DNA of 64,000 nucleotides. Origin: an uncultured candidate division Zixibacteria bacterium. GTDB lineage: Bacteria; Zixibacteria; MSB-5A5; UBA10806. The stretch is taken from NCBI GenBank assembly GCA_963801605.1, contig CAWDFP010000002.1, forward strand, positions 2,463-66,462. Reading direction: 5' to 3'. Below, in pieces: positions 8,625 through 41,010 of the stretch (within the stretch, counting starts at the first letter, position 1; each line of letters opens with the position of its first letter). The notes under the pieces are model-generated. The model saw only the letters and a program-made list of their open reading frames with translations, did not search any database and was not told where the DNA came from. The position numbers and the translations under genes were made by a program.

Positions 8625-10151
8625 ATGAAGAAAACTCTTCTAATAATCCTGGCAGTCATACTGCTTGGTTGGAGTATGGCATCGGCGGGTGTTCCCACAG
8701 CGACAGGCAGAATTAAAGCCTCTGCAAAGGTCGAGAAAGCGGAACCAAAAGCCGAGGAGTCCTCCCGTAAGGTTGTGAAAGCCGAACAGCCGGCTATCGA
8801 AAACCGCACCGGCGCGGTGAGAAACGAGAAGGCCGAGAAAAAGGCGGAACCTGCCGAAAATACATCCACTGAACGAAAAGAAACAGTTCAGAAAAAGCAG
8901 GAAGTTAAGATCGATCAAGCTCTTTTAGAGGCGCAGGCTGAAGCGGCAAAGCTTCTGCAAGAGCAGGCGGTTGCGAAACAGGAAGCCGTTTTGCAGGCCA
9001 ACGAGACCGCCGGCAAGAAGGACCTGATCCCGGAAGAGATACCGATGAAAAACGGTATCCCGCAAACCGCTAAATCGGACCCCGCCCAATTTATCACCAC
9101 TCCCGCGGGGATAGTCAACGCCCCTGGTATTGGAGATAATCCACCGGTTATCACGGATATCTTCTTTACAGAGGATTTTGAAACCGGCGCCCTTCCAGAT
9201 GGTTGGAGCGACGTTCCGGGAACCCTTCCCTGGCTTTATGACGGTGGCACAGACCACGGCCCCAATGCCCCACACGGAGGCAGCTATGCCGCATACTTCA
9301 ATATTTATGATTATGCCGCCGGAACTATCGACTCCTTGATTACCCCCAGTATCGATCTCTCAGCACATAGCGGCAGCTATATGCTTTCCTACTGGAGCTG
9401 GCACAGTTCCGGTACCGATTCAATGGTCGTATTCTTATCGGAGGCCGGTGTAAATACTCGCATTCATAGAATGCCAAATACCGCATCCTGGAATCAGAAT
9501 TTGATCATGTTCAATTCTTCGTCTGCCGATGCCAGAATACTTTTTGTTGGATACAGCAGATTCGGCTCATATAATATCTATATCGATGATATTGAAATCC
9601 GGGATGCTCCAACGCTCGGACGATGCTGCTACGGCGATCCCGTGACGCCAAGCTGCGATGATAATTCGTCAACGGATTGCGCGGCTCTGAACGGAACCTG
9701 GAATCCACTTCAAACCTGCGCCGGCGAGGCATGTCCAGCGGTTGTCCGCGGCGAAAACTGCGTTGCGCCGTTCATCATTGAATCTTTGCCCTATACCGAT
9801 ACTCAGAACACTGCCAATTGGCAGAACGATTACGGTCATAGCGGACGGGACGTAGTCTATGAACTTACGATTACTGAGCGTACACTGGTAGATATTACAA
9901 CCTGCAATTCACCCGATCCAACATTCGACGACTACATCGGTGTCTGGGGCCCGGGTCAATGCGGGTCGACTACGTATTTAGCCTCCACCGATGGAGGGTG
10001 TGATACCCAGCTTGATCTGGCCCATATTTCGGATTTGATGCTAACCCCCGGTACCTACTACATACTTGTCGAAGCATATTTTTCGAGCTCCGATGGCGAG
10101 TATGTTCTGGAAATCACGGGTACGCTCCATACCGCCCACCAATCCCGGTGA
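8625..10151 (+). CDS. Giant modular surface protein, N-terminal fragment: signal peptide, K/E/A-rich coiled region, choice-of-anchor-J/MAM-like domain, Cys-rich linker and first PPC-like domain
   Basis: GGAGAG RBS then ATG at 8625, and signal peptide MKKTLLIILAVILLGWSMASAG. The last domain (GENCVAPFIIESLPYTDT...YYILVEAY...EYVLEIT) is the same type as the first domains of the next ORF. The frame is lost at 10118-10137. Confidence 0.8.
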   Translation: MKKTLLIILAVILLGWSMASAGVPTATGRIKASAKVEKAEPKAEESSRKVVKAEQPAIENRTGAVRNEKAEKKAEPAENTSTERKETVQKKQEVKIDQALLEAQAEAAKLLQEQAVAKQEAVLQANETAGKKDLIPEEIPMKNGIPQTAKSDPAQFITTPAGIVNAPGIGDNPPVITDIFFTEDFETGALPDGWSDVPGTLPWLYDGGTDHGPNAPHGGSYAAYFNIYDYAAGTIDSLITPSIDLSAHSGSYMLSYWSWHSSGTDSMVVFLSEAGVNTRIHRMPNTASWNQNLIMFNSSSADARILFVGYSRFGSYNIYIDDIEIRDAPTLGRCCYGDPVTPSCDDNSSTDCAALNGTWNPLQTCAGEACPAVVRGENCVAPFIIESLPYTDTQNTANWQNDYGHSGRDVVYELTITERTLVDITTCNSPDPTFDDYIGVWGPGQCGSTTYLASTDGGCDTQLDLAHISDLMLTPGTYYILVEAYFSSSDGEYVLEITGTLHTAHQSR

Positions 10152-37873: not shown

Positions 37874-37892
37874 CTGATAAATAAAGGTGCTT

Positions 37893-38519
37893 ATGCAAAT
37901 AACTGAGCCCCGGATTAACGAATATATCCATAGCCTGCTGCCGTCAAAGGACAAGGTACTGGCTCAAATGGAAGCTTTCGCCAGAAAGAATAATTTTCCG
38001 ATAATCGGCCCGCTTGTCGGCCCTATTCTAAGGCAATTGGCGATAGTCTCGGGCGCGAAAAAAATCATCGAATTGGGTTCCGGTTACGGCTATTCGGCTT
38101 ACTGGTTCGCCGGGGGCCTGATAAAAGGCGGCAAAATTATTTGTACGGATAACTCTGAGGAAAATCGCGTTAAGGCCCTGGCGTATCTAAAAAGAGGCGG
38201 TTTTGGTTCGATGATCGATTACAGGGTTGGAGACGCTCTCGAAATACTTTCCAATCTCAAGGGACCTTTCGATATCATCTTTAATGATATCGATAAAAAA
38301 GATTATCCGAAAGCGTTGGAACTGGCAATTCCTCGGCTCAGGCCGGGTGGACTTTTTATTACCGATAATGTCTTATGGTCAGGACGAGTAATCGGCACTA
38401 AACCCGACGCTACGACGAAAGCTATTCTGGAATTCAACCGTAAGCTATTCAAAAGCAAACATCTGCTATCATCAATTATCCCTATCCGTGACGGTCTGGC
38501 TGTCGCAGTGAAGCTATAG
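37893..38519 (+). CDS. Class I SAM-dependent O-methyltransferase (caffeoyl-CoA OMT / YrrM-like)
   Basis: Motif I IIELGSGYGYS, with FNDIDKKDY and GGLFITDNVLW. The likely start is ATG 37893; the ORF-track start is GTG 37887. Confidence 0.85.
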   Translation: MQITEPRINEYIHSLLPSKDKVLAQMEAFARKNNFPIIGPLVGPILRQLAIVSGAKKIIELGSGYGYSAYWFAGGLIKGGKIICTDNSEENRVKALAYLKRGGFGSMIDYRVGDALEILSNLKGPFDIIFNDIDKKDYPKALELAIPRLRPGGLFITDNVLWSGRVIGTKPDATTKAILEFNRKLFKSKHLLSSIIPIRDGLAVAVKL

Positions 38520-38547
38520 TATCCTGATAGCAAATTCGCAGGTAATG

Positions 38548-38673
38548 CGGCCGGGGTTCCGTTCTCGACCAAAGGTCGAGCAGAAATCCGATTGGGGCGA
38601 GTAACCATTATCAGAATGCCCCAATCGGATTTCTCCTTTGGTCCCCCAGGACCAAAGGGCGGAACCCCGGCCG
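38548..38673. repeat. 126-nt nested palindrome that folds into a perfect four-helix cloverleaf (candidate structured RNA or REP/MITE-like element)
   Basis: P1 is 38548-38561 / 38660-38673 (14 bp). P2 is 38564-38570 / 38574-38580 (7 bp). P3 is 38582-38598 / 38618-38634 (17 bp). P4 is 38635-38644 / 38649-38658 (10 bp). All pairs are Watson-Crick and the linkers are 0-2 nt. Confidence 0.7.
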
Positions 38674-38748
38674 AGCGCAATCAAGACCACAATTGAAAAG
38701 GGCGCTCCGGATGGAACGCCCATAAGATCGCTAATTTTGGCTATCGAT

Positions 38749-41010
38749 CTATATAAACAGCGGCGCCAGCACCAATGTGATTGTCGAAAGAAGTTTGATT
38801 AGCACGTGAAGCGACGGCCCGGCGGTATCTTTGAACGGATCACCAACCGTATCGCCAACAACAGCGGCGCCATGAGTCGGGTTTTTATATTTTTTACCGT
38901 TGGCGTCAGTAAGATATTTTCCGCCATGAGCGCCAGTTTCGATATACTTTTTGGCGTTGTCCCAGGCGCCACCGCCGTTATTCAGCACCAGGGCCATCAG
39001 GATGCCGGCTATGGTCCCAACCATCAGGAAAGCGGCAACAGCCTCAGCAGCGATCAAGGGATCATCTGTGCTCCTGAAAACCTTAAAGATTATACCAACC
39101 GAAATCGGGGCCAGGACAACCAATAACCCGGGTAAGATCATCTGACGTAAGGCCGCCTTGGTAACGATGTCCACGGAGGTTCCATAGTCTGGTTCGAAAT
39201 TGGCCGGGAACTGAATCATATCGTTTTCGCGGGGGAGAGGCGCATATTGGCGACGCACTTCCTGAATGATCGATTGGGCGGCCCGTCCCACGGCGCGGAT
39301 TGCCAAAGAAGAAAAAAGAAAGACCAGCATGGCGCCCAAAAGCGCTCCCACAAATACCACCGGTTTCGAAAGATCCACTCTAAATAGATATTCCGGCGCC
39401 AGACCGGCGTACTGCTTGACCTCATCCATATAAGCCTGGAAAAGCAGAAATGCCGCCAGGGCAGCCGAGCCGATAGCGTAGCCTTTGGTCAGGGCTTTGG
39501 TAGTGTTGCCTACGGAATCGAGTCGGTCCGTCTTTTTACGAATATCCTCCGGCTGTTGAGACATTTCCACAATACCGCCGGCGTTATCCGTAATCGGTCC
39601 GAAAGTATCCATTGCCAGAATATAAGCGGCGGTAGCGAGCATTCCCATGGTGGCAACGGCAGTACCGAACAGCCCGCCAACGGGAAGACCGTTAACATCA
39701 TTAATTCCACTGGCTCTGCCCAGGAAGAAAGAGGATAAAAGAGCCGCACCCATAACCAGAACCGGCAGGGCGGTGCATTCGAACGCCACCGAGATTCCGG
39801 AAATGATATTGGTAGCCGGGCCGGTTACTGATGCCTCGGCGATCGATTTTACCGGCCGATATTTATATTCGGTGTAGTATTGAGTGATATATACGAAAGC
39901 TACCGAAGTTAACACACCCACAATTCCGCATAAGAAGAAATGCCACCAGGCCTGAGGCGCCTGCGGGGTGTAAAGGAGCCAGCGCGTGGCCAATCCGAAG
40001 CCTATCATTGCCAGAATAACTGCCACATAATAGGCGCGGTTCAAGGCTGTCATAGGATCCATCTTTTCTTCTTTATCCAGCTTGACCGCCATTATCCCAA
40101 TTATCGATGCAATAATACCGAAGGCACGCGCGATCAGGGGAAACATGATAACCCCGATAATTCCCATTGAAAACACCATGCCTGCTCGTTGAGCCACAGC
40201 CGCCAGAGTAGCGCCCAAAATCATCGCGCCGATATTTTCAGCAGCCGTTGATTCAAACAGGTCCGCTCCACGGCCGGCGCAGTCACCCACGTTATCACCC
40301 ACCAGATCGGCAATCACCGCGGGATTACGCGGATCGTCCTCAGGTATGCCAGCCTCGACTTTGCCTACCAGGTCAGCGCCAACATCGGCGGCCTTGGTGT
40401 AAATACCTCCGCCAAGTTGAGCGAAAAGCGCCACAAACGAGGCTCCAAAGCCATAACCAACGATGAGCAGCGGAATACGCGAGGGATCGATTCCGCTAAT
40501 GTAATGAACCAGAGTGTAGAGGCCCGCCACGCCGAGAAGGCTCATGGAAACTACCAGCAAGCCTGAGACAGCCCCGCCTCGAAGTGCAATGCGAAGGGCA
40601 TCGTTGAGGCTGGAAATGGCCGCATGAGCGGTGCGGATATTACTTCTGATAGAAATCCACATCCCCACATACCCCGCGAAAACGGAGCATAGCGCGCCAA
40701 AAATGAATGAAACAGTAATCCAGGCCGCCAACTCCAGAGGATTATCCACCGGGTCAAAGCTATGATGAGACCTAAATACTCCGTAGCCCAAGAATAGGAA
40801 AGCCGCCAAAACCAGCGCCAGTAAAATAATCGTGCGGTTCTGCCGTCTCATGAAGGCCTCGGCGCCCGATTTGATGGCGTTGGATATTTTTTGCATCGCC
40901 TCACTTCCAACTCCGTGGCGCAGTACCCATCGGGAAAGATAAGCTGCAAATCCAAGCCCAAATAAGCTGATGGCGAGGACGATAATGATCAATTGAACTA
41001 ACTCATTCAT
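38749..41010 (-). CDS. hppA: Membrane-bound proton-translocating pyrophosphatase, K+-independent type
   Basis: 753 aa and polytopic. Motifs are GGGIYTKAADVGADLVGK, DNVGDCAGRGADLFE, GGAWDNAKKYIE and GDTVGDPFKDT. GNTTKA carries Lys at the K+-dependence determinant. Confidence 0.95.
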   Translation of the reverse strand: MNELVQLIIIVLAISLFGLGFAAYLSRWVLRHGVGSEAMQKISNAIKSGAEAFMRRQNRTIILLALVLAAFLFLGYGVFRSHHSFDPVDNPLELAAWITVSFIFGALCSVFAGYVGMWISIRSNIRTAHAAISSLNDALRIALRGGAVSGLLVVSMSLLGVAGLYTLVHYISGIDPSRIPLLIVGYGFGASFVALFAQLGGGIYTKAADVGADLVGKVEAGIPEDDPRNPAVIADLVGDNVGDCAGRGADLFESTAAENIGAMILGATLAAVAQRAGMVFSMGIIGVIMFPLIARAFGIIASIIGIMAVKLDKEEKMDPMTALNRAYYVAVILAMIGFGLATRWLLYTPQAPQAWWHFFLCGIVGVLTSVAFVYITQYYTEYKYRPVKSIAEASVTGPATNIISGISVAFECTALPVLVMGAALLSSFFLGRASGINDVNGLPVGGLFGTAVATMGMLATAAYILAMDTFGPITDNAGGIVEMSQQPEDIRKKTDRLDSVGNTTKALTKGYAIGSAALAAFLLFQAYMDEVKQYAGLAPEYLFRVDLSKPVVFVGALLGAMLVFLFSSLAIRAVGRAAQSIIQEVRRQYAPLPRENDMIQFPANFEPDYGTSVDIVTKAALRQMILPGLLVVLAPISVGIIFKVFRSTDDPLIAAEAVAAFLMVGTIAGILMALVLNNGGGAWDNAKKYIETGAHGGKYLTDANGKKYKNPTHGAAVVGDTVGDPFKDTAGPSLHVLIKLLSTITLVLAPLFI

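Follow-up and report, generated by a model that had tools for sequence, protein, structure and literature searches.

What is the 126-nt cloverleaf that lies between two convergent genes at positions 38548-38673 of the window (the whole 64,000-nt stretch of Zixibacterial DNA under analysis), and does it belong to those genes? The upstream neighbour is an O-methyltransferase gene (37887-38519, + strand; Pfam Methyltransf_3, 8.9e-33), whose stop lies 28 nt before the element. The downstream neighbour is hppA, encoding an H+-translocating pyrophosphatase (38749-41010, - strand; Pfam H_PPase, 1.7e-250). A sequence-only reading of this DNA had described a nested four-helix palindrome with 48 Watson-Crick pairs, and both the sequence and RNAfold agree with it exactly; a single T·G pair is added at the inner end of P1. 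The outer stem P1 is formed by 38548-38561 and 38660-38673 (14 of 14 positions complementary). The 'S' side hairpin P2 (38564-38580, CTCGACC-AAA-GGTCGAG) pairs 38564-38570 with 38574-38580 in a perfect 7-bp stem. In the central stem P3, 38582-38598 pairs with 38618-38634 over 17 bp, leaving a 19-nt loop (38599-38617), and the 'W' side hairpin P4 (38635-38658, CCTTTGGTCC-CCCA-GGACCAAAGG) pairs 38635-38644 with 38649-38658 in a perfect 10-bp stem. The linkers are 0-2 nt long and the four-way junction forms on either strand. The arms of P1 and P3 were each picked up separately by a repeat finder (I12 and I1).

The predicted fold is exceptionally stable. RNAfold puts the RNA minimum free energy at -91.2 kcal/mol; 200 dinucleotide shuffles give -47.3 +/- 3.5 and none of them is as good (z = -12.5). 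With DNA parameters the + strand folds at -57.8 kcal/mol (z = -14.2) and the - strand at -57.1 (z = -11.5). Such a statistically exceptional fold is what a locus-specific structured RNA would show, be it riboswitch-, ribozyme- or sRNA-like, acting on the O-methyltransferase/hppA pair through a two-fold switch. The motif GACCAAAGG does occur twice, as the sequence-only reading had noticed, and on paper it provides the alternative pairing. However, the switch-like fold, computed under hard constraints, falls short of the cloverleaf by 11.4 kcal/mol as RNA and by 9.4 kcal/mol as DNA, and it depends on a chance likeness of the two hairpins that is absent from the other copies of the element described below. 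No Rfam family reaches its gathering threshold for the window copy (38300-38900 searched at E <= 10): the best score belongs to mir-4667 (18.5 bits where 68 are required, E 1.6) and all six matches have E >= 0.8. The proposal that this is no canonical intrinsic terminator, made from the missing U-tract, is borne out by a terminator scan, which found neither a terminator at the element nor a T-run behind it. The scan's sole hit is the terminator of hppA (38700-38721, - strand; a 9-bp stem followed by TTTTCAATTG), which is separate from the element, and in the same scan no terminator belonging to the O-methyltransferase gene appears ahead of the element.

The element is one of 23 copies in this 3.06-Mb genome (G000). 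BLAST with the element as query found a dozen partial matches in its genome; each of these loci folded into the same architecture, and a census anchored on the motifs brought the number to 23. All are intergenic and none lies within a long ORF. A covariance model built from 21 of the 23 copies recovers 21 loci and misses the two with the longest inserts; it matches the window copy at C2:41011-41134 (window 38549-38672) with 69.5 bits and an E-value of 2e-10. The earlier statement that the window holds no second copy is literally true, as the sole match on contig C2 is the element itself, but it is misleading with 22 more elsewhere in the genome. Simple ORF calls place 8 copies between convergent genes, 4 between divergent genes and the rest in co-directional contexts, and by the same calls many lie 2-90 nt past a stop codon. 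The copies show no orientation bias relative to neighbouring genes, with 4 in the same and 4 in the opposite orientation in co-directional contexts. Two decayed relics are also present, at C6:1529601 and C7:66270.

All 23 copies have the same four-helix architecture, with two inverted REP units around a variable spacer. The outer stem is always built on the invariant GGGTTCCGC/GCGGAACCC and the central stem always begins GAAATCCGAT/ATCGGATTTC. Among the 21 aligned copies the P1 core GGGTTCCG is unchanged in every one while the distal pairs covary (CG/GC/UA), and the P3 base GAAATCCGA is kept in 20-21. The side hairpins vary in sequence from copy to copy with essentially perfect pairing in intact copies. 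Nearly every copy has one GC-rich hairpin (GCCCCGAC, CGTCCCGATC, CGTCCAATTGGACG or CTCGACC) and one T-rich hairpin (CTTTCGGTC, CTTTTGTCCC, CTCCTGACCC or CCTTTGGTCC). The spacer together with the distal central stem ranges from ~6 to ~130 nt; this part is not alignable and has no sequence conservation.

A dispersed, intergenic family whose copies are 105-225 bp long, have terminal inverted repeats of 9-18 bp and are patchily distributed among relatives could also be a conventional MITE, that is, an element that arose by deletion from a DDE-type IS, is moved in trans and leaves target-site duplications. Comparison of the 40-nt flanks across the 23 copies revealed neither a target-site duplication nor a dinucleotide conserved beside the element. 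Moreover, the whole element is self-complementary and not its ends alone. A search for end-motif pairs up to 500 nt apart found no longer element with the same ends and a transposase in the genome, and none of the longer pairs had the central motifs. As shown below, the halves of the element share homology with GTAG REPs, and the transposase that these bracket is an HUH Y1 and not a DDE enzyme. A conventional MITE is thus very improbable. Since target-site duplications are missing, the match is with REP/REPIN elements, which are associated with an HUH transposase and ssDNA hairpins, and not with a TIR/TSD MITE. The sequence-only reading had listed a REP/BIME- or MITE-like element among its candidates, and the REP part of that suggestion was right. 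It had also named many dispersed copies with target-site duplications as the finding that would identify a selfish element: the dispersed copies are there (23 in this genome and at least 17 in the sister species), the duplications are not.

The pairing itself is under selection, on both strands. The sequence-only reading had suggested a check for covariation in homologues, and this gave a clear result: of the cells in the model-fitted alignment, 97.4% are paired; both partners have changed in 16 of 26 pairs, and none of 500 shuffles was as good. When the partner is slid by one column, pairing falls to <=59%. One-sided changes of the G·U type make up ~1% of cells. The mean folding energies of 45 copies are nearly the same for the two strands (+ strand -90.1, - strand -88.7 kcal/mol). 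Strand symmetry and the rarity of G·U pairs suggest a constraint at the DNA level and not on one RNA strand, so the comparison of copies points to DNA-level constraint on the structure of the element. Together with the 23 copies beside unrelated genes, the equal folding of both strands, the perfect helices with almost no conserved unpaired nucleotides, and an orthologous copy with other hairpins and another spacer (see below), this leaves a locus-specific novel or riboswitch-like RNA with next to no likelihood.

The nature of the halves became apparent from a second set of repeats. A looser scan for half-element patterns, which otherwise returned mostly noise, brought to light ~24 singlet REPs in this genome. 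They have the form GTAGGTCGGGTTCCGAG-(GTCCC..GGGAC)-GAGAAACCCGACA, carry GTAG, and share the layout of one cloverleaf half. One REP unit is arm a (GGGTTCCGC), a small private hairpin and arm a' (GAAATCCGAT...). In the window, the left unit (38548-38598, + strand) consists of the outer arm CGGCCGGGGTTCCG, the GC-rich 'S' hairpin and the inner arm AGAAATCCGATTGGGGC. The right unit is inverted (38618-38673, - strand), with inner arm, T-rich 'W' hairpin and outer arm in the order of the + strand. Read on the - strand it is CGGCCGGGGTTCCGC-(CCTTTGGTCC..GGACCAAAGG)-AGAAATCCGATTGGGGC, the layout of the left unit with another private hairpin. The spacer at 38599-38617, which forms the loop of P3, separates the two units.

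In two other genomes (G022 and G019) the halves of doublets have exactly the sequence of the singlet unit of this genome. In more distant Zixibacteria the doublets end in GTAGGTCGGGTTCC...GGAACCCGACCTAC, and those of G188, G157 and G057 are bounded by GTAGGTCGGGTTCCG...CGGAACCCGACCTAC, with GTAG at both outer ends. The arms of these distant GTAG doublets are homologous to those of the family to which the window copy belongs (family 1). Because the halves of the window copy match singlets and the halves of GTAG doublets in layout, the cloverleaf can be read as two inverted REP units, and the element at 38548-38673 as an inverted, REPIN-like REP doublet. The two private hairpins differ (GC-rich and T-rich) and cannot pair together, so both protrude and a four-way junction results. 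The element is in all likelihood a REPIN or REP doublet, i.e. a head-to-head GTAG-REP heterodimer.

The distribution of the family in the phylum is patchy. Copy counts from the phylum scan are lower bounds, as only 10 candidates per genome were scored, with strict filters. With model R1 the sister species (G001, Ca. Zixiibacteriota UBA10806) has at least 17 copies, G002, G004, G019 and G022 have 1-2 each, and the other 35 relatives have none. With model R2, a second model in which diverged copies were included, relatives of the family appear in 25 of 285 Zixibacteria genomes belonging to six families; G002, for example, has 1 copy by R1 and 3 loci by R2. The exact family-1 pattern is repeated only in Ca. 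Zixiibacteriota UBA10806; in the rest of 185,579 species it turns up only as single chance matches. In other genera compensatory changes preserve the four-way junction, as seen in the outer stem (GGGUUCCGG/CCGGAACCC), the central stem (GAGAAACCCGACA/UGUCGGGUUUCUC) and the P3 base (GAAACCCGA/UCGGGUUUC). The hppA 3' flanks of G002 and G004 are without the element, but synteny with the methyltransferase is lost there and the comparison is uninformative.

The relatives also provide the link to a transposase. Within the class, genes for Y1 HUH transposases are common. On contig C384 of G022 (locus L078; locus coordinates) a cloverleaf doublet at 1664-1819 is followed by a GTAG-headed REP at 1979-2027, a RAYT gene of 159 aa at 2038-2517 (Pfam Y1_Tnp, with HFH and YIHYNP motifs), and at 2529-2634 by a degenerate forward REP and then an inverted one. 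The RAYT gene is therefore bracketed by REP in inverted orientation, with the cloverleaf doublet ~220 nt upstream. Its orthologues are found in 185 of 285 Zixibacteria genomes. Among 30 orthologous RAYT loci from 30 genomes, the 11-mer TAGGTCGGGTT adjoins the gene in 27, where ~0.05 would be expected by chance, and it brackets the gene in ~20: the upstream copy is 40-70 nt away on the + strand, the downstream copy 35-120 nt away on the - strand. Cloverleaf doublets stand beside the RAYT gene in 7 of the 30 loci by model R2, on both sides in G190 and G268. REP bracketing of a RAYT gene is the defining arrangement of REP/REPIN-RAYT systems.

The subfamily in the window is a derived one, without GTAG heads and without a cognate RAYT in the 87%-complete assembly. 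GTAG is absent from the ends of the window copy and of other family-1 copies, which are flanked by variable sequence. No orthologue of the REP-bracketed RAYT was found in the MAG assemblies of G000 (86.9% complete) or G001 (69% complete), and a tblastn search of G000 with the G022 protein gave at best 33% identity, to an unrelated RAYT at C6:524710. Three resident genes were considered as mobilisers and rejected: the RAYT genes at C6:524629 and C6:211222 are flanked by other, unrelated REP types, and the RAYT-like ORF at C7:362094-362624 has no HUH motif and no family REP adjoining it. The missing GTAG of the subfamily, the missing RAYT orthologue and the unrelated REPs borne by resident RAYT-like genes count against a REPIN.

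Mobility of the family is inferred from how many copies exist, from their patchy distribution and from differences in presence or absence. By analogy with known systems, spread driven by a RAYT is most likely. On ssDNA, or on an RNA copy, the outer stem would arise from pairing of the first arm a with the last a-complement, and the central stem, which encloses the spacer, from pairing of the inner arms, with the private hairpins protruding. The RAYT, a domesticated IS200/IS605-type HUH Y1 transposase, would recognise the units as ssDNA hairpins. Going by what is proposed for such families, it would cut and rejoin the units at the replication fork, and further copies of the doublets would thereby arise at new intergenic positions. 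The mostly static state of the window subfamily would follow from its loss of GTAG and of the RAYT. As a side effect, incidental to its origin, the window copy, which begins 28 nt past the O-methyltransferase stop, may also act as a 3' barrier or stabiliser of that transcript, in line with the stabilising 3' UTR element among the candidates of the sequence-only reading. Beyond such a probable 3' structure the copy has no specific regulatory meaning for the gene pair.

Comparison with the sister species suggests what happened in that state. When the 17 G001 copies are compared with orthologous G000 sites, 11 sites have an intact copy, 2 a decayed relic and 3 no element, and 1 is undecided. The flanking coding identity between the two genomes is ~68-90%, mostly 70-78%. 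The sequence-only reading had regarded conservation in relatives with the same gene pair as informative, and the sister species indeed has a copy in the same O-methyltransferase/hppA spacer. There, the unusual outer-stem variant CGGCCGGGGTTCCG and the central GAAATCCGATTGGG are common to both species. P2, P4 and the spacer are wholly different and the hairpins still pair perfectly: the counterpart of P2 is the perfect stem GCCCCAAC-GAA-GTTGGGGC, that of P4 is CTTTCGCTCC-ATT-GGAGCGAAAG, and 59 nt lie past the first 17 bp of the central stem on each side.

In 5 of the 11 orthologous pairs the GC-rich and T-rich hairpins have swapped sides with respect to the flanking DNA, with lineage-specific outer-stem variants retained. 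For example, the outer-stem variant CGGCCCGGGTTCCGC is kept at C6:1149535 and at the G001 locus L055, and a near-identical TTTCGACCC hairpin is found on opposite sides at C6:957627 and L064. Reversal of the hairpin order while the outer stems stay implies that the interior inverts between the outer inverted repeats. The G001 copy L056 aligns to C6:949680-949860, where the element is absent and the spacers are too diverged for its boundaries to be placed. Because of this divergence of orthologous spacers, neither an excision nor an insertion event is definable, and the same holds for a target-site signature and for an exact empty site. The comparison indicates that copies are mostly inherited vertically with turnover by occasional inversion, decay and loss.

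Persistence of this kind is also compatible with domestication, in which the host would keep a non-transposing junction as an RNA 3' structure or as cruciform DNA, whether as a barrier, terminator or stabiliser at mRNA 3' ends or as a site bound by a protein that recognises junctions or hairpins. Eleven of 17 positions are common to two species whose flanking genes are ~70-78% identical, and the arms GGGTTCCG and AAATCCGA have changed hardly or not at all, in contrast to the spacer and the side hairpins, which have turned over. The GTAG head is missing, as is a cognate RAYT from both assemblies. Distances of 2-90 nt from a preceding stop codon are frequent among the copies, 8 of them stand between convergent genes, and the O-methyltransferase gene lacks a separate terminator ahead of the element. 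A role as 3' structure, however, does not agree with random orientation to the upstream gene and flips in 5 of 11 pairs, nor with the 4 copies between divergent genes, where there is no 3' end. Equal folding of both strands and avoidance of G·U speak against selection on a single RNA strand. Elsewhere in the genus and family, genomes have few or no detectable copies, which means that no conserved host function depends on them, and copies decay, as the relics at C6:1529601 and C7:66270 demonstrate. Domestication is therefore considered unlikely.

The strong conservation of the arms across two species that lack the RAYT, which speaks against a REPIN, could mean recognition by a host factor. A more specific proposal is that an obligate four-way junction, resembling Holliday-junction DNA, is kept by selection without a transposase in this genus. 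It draws on arms that are invariant at orthologous sites, hairpins that turn over by paired changes and interiors that flip, and it is judged to be a rather long shot. If true, a host junction- or hairpin-binding protein or the replication/repair machinery would read the sites as fixed chromosomal landmarks of mobile-element origin, e.g. in the management of supercoils, in fork pausing or at domain boundaries.

To our knowledge, REP/REPIN-RAYT systems have been studied almost only in Proteobacteria. The REP/REPIN class of the element is itself known. New are a REP/REPIN-RAYT system for the uncultured Zixibacteria, with a phylum-wide RAYT clade (185 of 285 genomes) and its cognate GTAG REP, and the doublet form that keeps different private hairpins and thereby makes a four-way junction. 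Annotators gain a model for an element that otherwise resembles a spectacular novel RNA. The 11 orthologous pairs, with their arm conservation, hairpin turnover and flipped interiors, form a data set on the persistence of palindromic repeats after loss of the transposase.

Among known systems, the inverted terminal repeats (ITRs) of parvoviruses and AAV offer an analogy only. These T-shaped hairpins too have an outer palindrome around two small, different inner palindromes, and an interior found in either orientation (flip/flop). However, the ITR is a three-way junction and the terminal replication origin of a linear viral genome, and there is no evolutionary relationship.

The BIMEs of E. coli and their TnpA-REP are closer, with two distinguishable REP types in inverted orientation and short linkers; the corresponding pair in nearly every copy of this genome is one S and one W hairpin. 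The E. coli RAYT, TnpA-REP, is a Y1 HUH enzyme that acts on ssDNA hairpins, recognising a hairpin plus a 5' tetranucleotide on ssDNA (Ton-Hoang et al. 2012, PMC3333891; Messing et al. 2012, PMC3479197), and its cleavage requires the GTAG tag (PMC3733652, PMC3333891). BIME REPs differ in being simple imperfect hairpins of ~35 nt, and binding of IHF, gyrase and Pol I is known for BIMEs but putative here.

The GTAG REP head-to-head (HH) heterodimers described by Di Nocera et al. 2013 (PMC3733652) have their counterpart in the doublets of G188, G157 and G057, which carry GTAG at both ends. Partners with different stems, variable spacers of 20-100 bp and coexisting singlets are further points of likeness to those dimers. 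The survey did not include this phylum or this REP sequence. The window copy differs from GTAG dimers in having (T)GGCCGC/GGCCGG in place of the GTAGGTC head.

REPINs, a term of Bertels and Rainey, were described as inverted REPs with a less conserved spacer and compensatory changes, with RAYTs flanked by REPINs (PMC3116915). Vertical co-inheritance has been reported for REPIN-RAYT systems. The Zixibacterial family departs from them in its fold, a four-way junction in which each unit keeps a non-matching hairpin, whereas classical REPINs are drawn as a long hairpin. It also departs from them in its host phylum, in its modest copy number (23) and in a subfamily without the GTAG head or a RAYT in the assembly. 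What the family shares with REPINs are inverted REPs around a less conserved spacer, an extragenic and dispersed location, compensatory changes in the hairpins, long vertical persistence and, as seen in the relatives only, a cognate HUH Y1 transposase gene bracketed by REP/REPIN.

The Zixibacteria assembly (G000) contains about 24 singlet REPs built as GTAGGTCGGGTTCCGAG-[GTCCC..GGGAC]-GAGAAACCCGACA, none of them in the window. Examples lie on four contigs (C6:1552748-1552777, C6:1559131-1559160, C7:352776-352805, C11:24763-24792, and C13:2872-2901). All of them form hairpins that contain tandem G·A mismatches, and the copies occur in both orientations and at times as tandem pairs. Several further GTAG-headed palindromic repeat types lie close to the singlets (C11:24800-24950, C6:1535570-1535700, and C13:2905-2960), for example GTAGGTCAAGACCCCC..GGGTCTTGAC, GTAGGGGCACATCTCGATGTGCCC, GTAGGTCAGGTGCCCCGGCACCTGAC, and CCGGGTGGCATGCTT..AAGCATG.

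The singlet is the cognate REP of one clade of RAYTs, the HUH Y1 transposases associated with REPs. This clade is present in 185 of 285 Zixibacteria, but the cognate RAYT is absent from the G000 assembly. A RAYT-like ORF of 176 aa (C7:362094-362624) retains the C-terminal tyrosine motif YLHNEPVRRG, has LLPSILYAV at the expected position of the HUH motif, and is not flanked by REPs of the family. This ORF may encode a Y1 transposase that has been inactivated or repurposed.

For its genome size, G000 appears unusually rich in REP families. Within the window, the sole GTAGG-headed stable hairpin is GTAGGAAAGCATATAGCTGCCGCTATGTGCTG (9353-9392, minus strand, -14.3 kcal/mol). Another hairpin, the hppA terminator GGGCGTTCCATCCGGAGCGCCC (38700-38721), has a T-run on the hppA side only. 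The O-methyltransferase transcript would thus run first into the 126-nt cloverleaf and then into the hppA terminator hairpin, and would itself have no U-tract.

Some cloverleaf copies carry a second, unrelated REP (GTTATGCCTCAGG...CCTGAGGCATAAC and variants) inside the spacer: C6:1183238-1183401 in G000, and loci L056 (1299-1462) and L058 (220-372) in the sister species (G001). REPs therefore nest in the loop of other REP doublets. The nested type is the same as that flanking a RAYT-like gene at C6:211222 in G000.

Comparison with the sister species also uncovered decayed relics in G000 at sites where G001 has intact doublets. At C6:1529601-1529713 two direct copies of CCCA(G/A)TCGGATTTCTCTATCAAT are left and the outer stems are missing, while at C7:66270-66330 the right half alone is found (CCCAATTAGATTTCC together with CTTTCG..CGAAAG). 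Among 11 orthologous G000/G001 pairs, five have the element interior (hairpin-centre-hairpin) inverted relative to the flanks, as in C6:957627 versus L064, C6:1149535 versus L055, and C6:173384 versus L052. Lineage-specific outer-stem variants are retained in pairs with a flipped interior. This inversion is reminiscent of the flip/flop of parvoviral terminal repeats.
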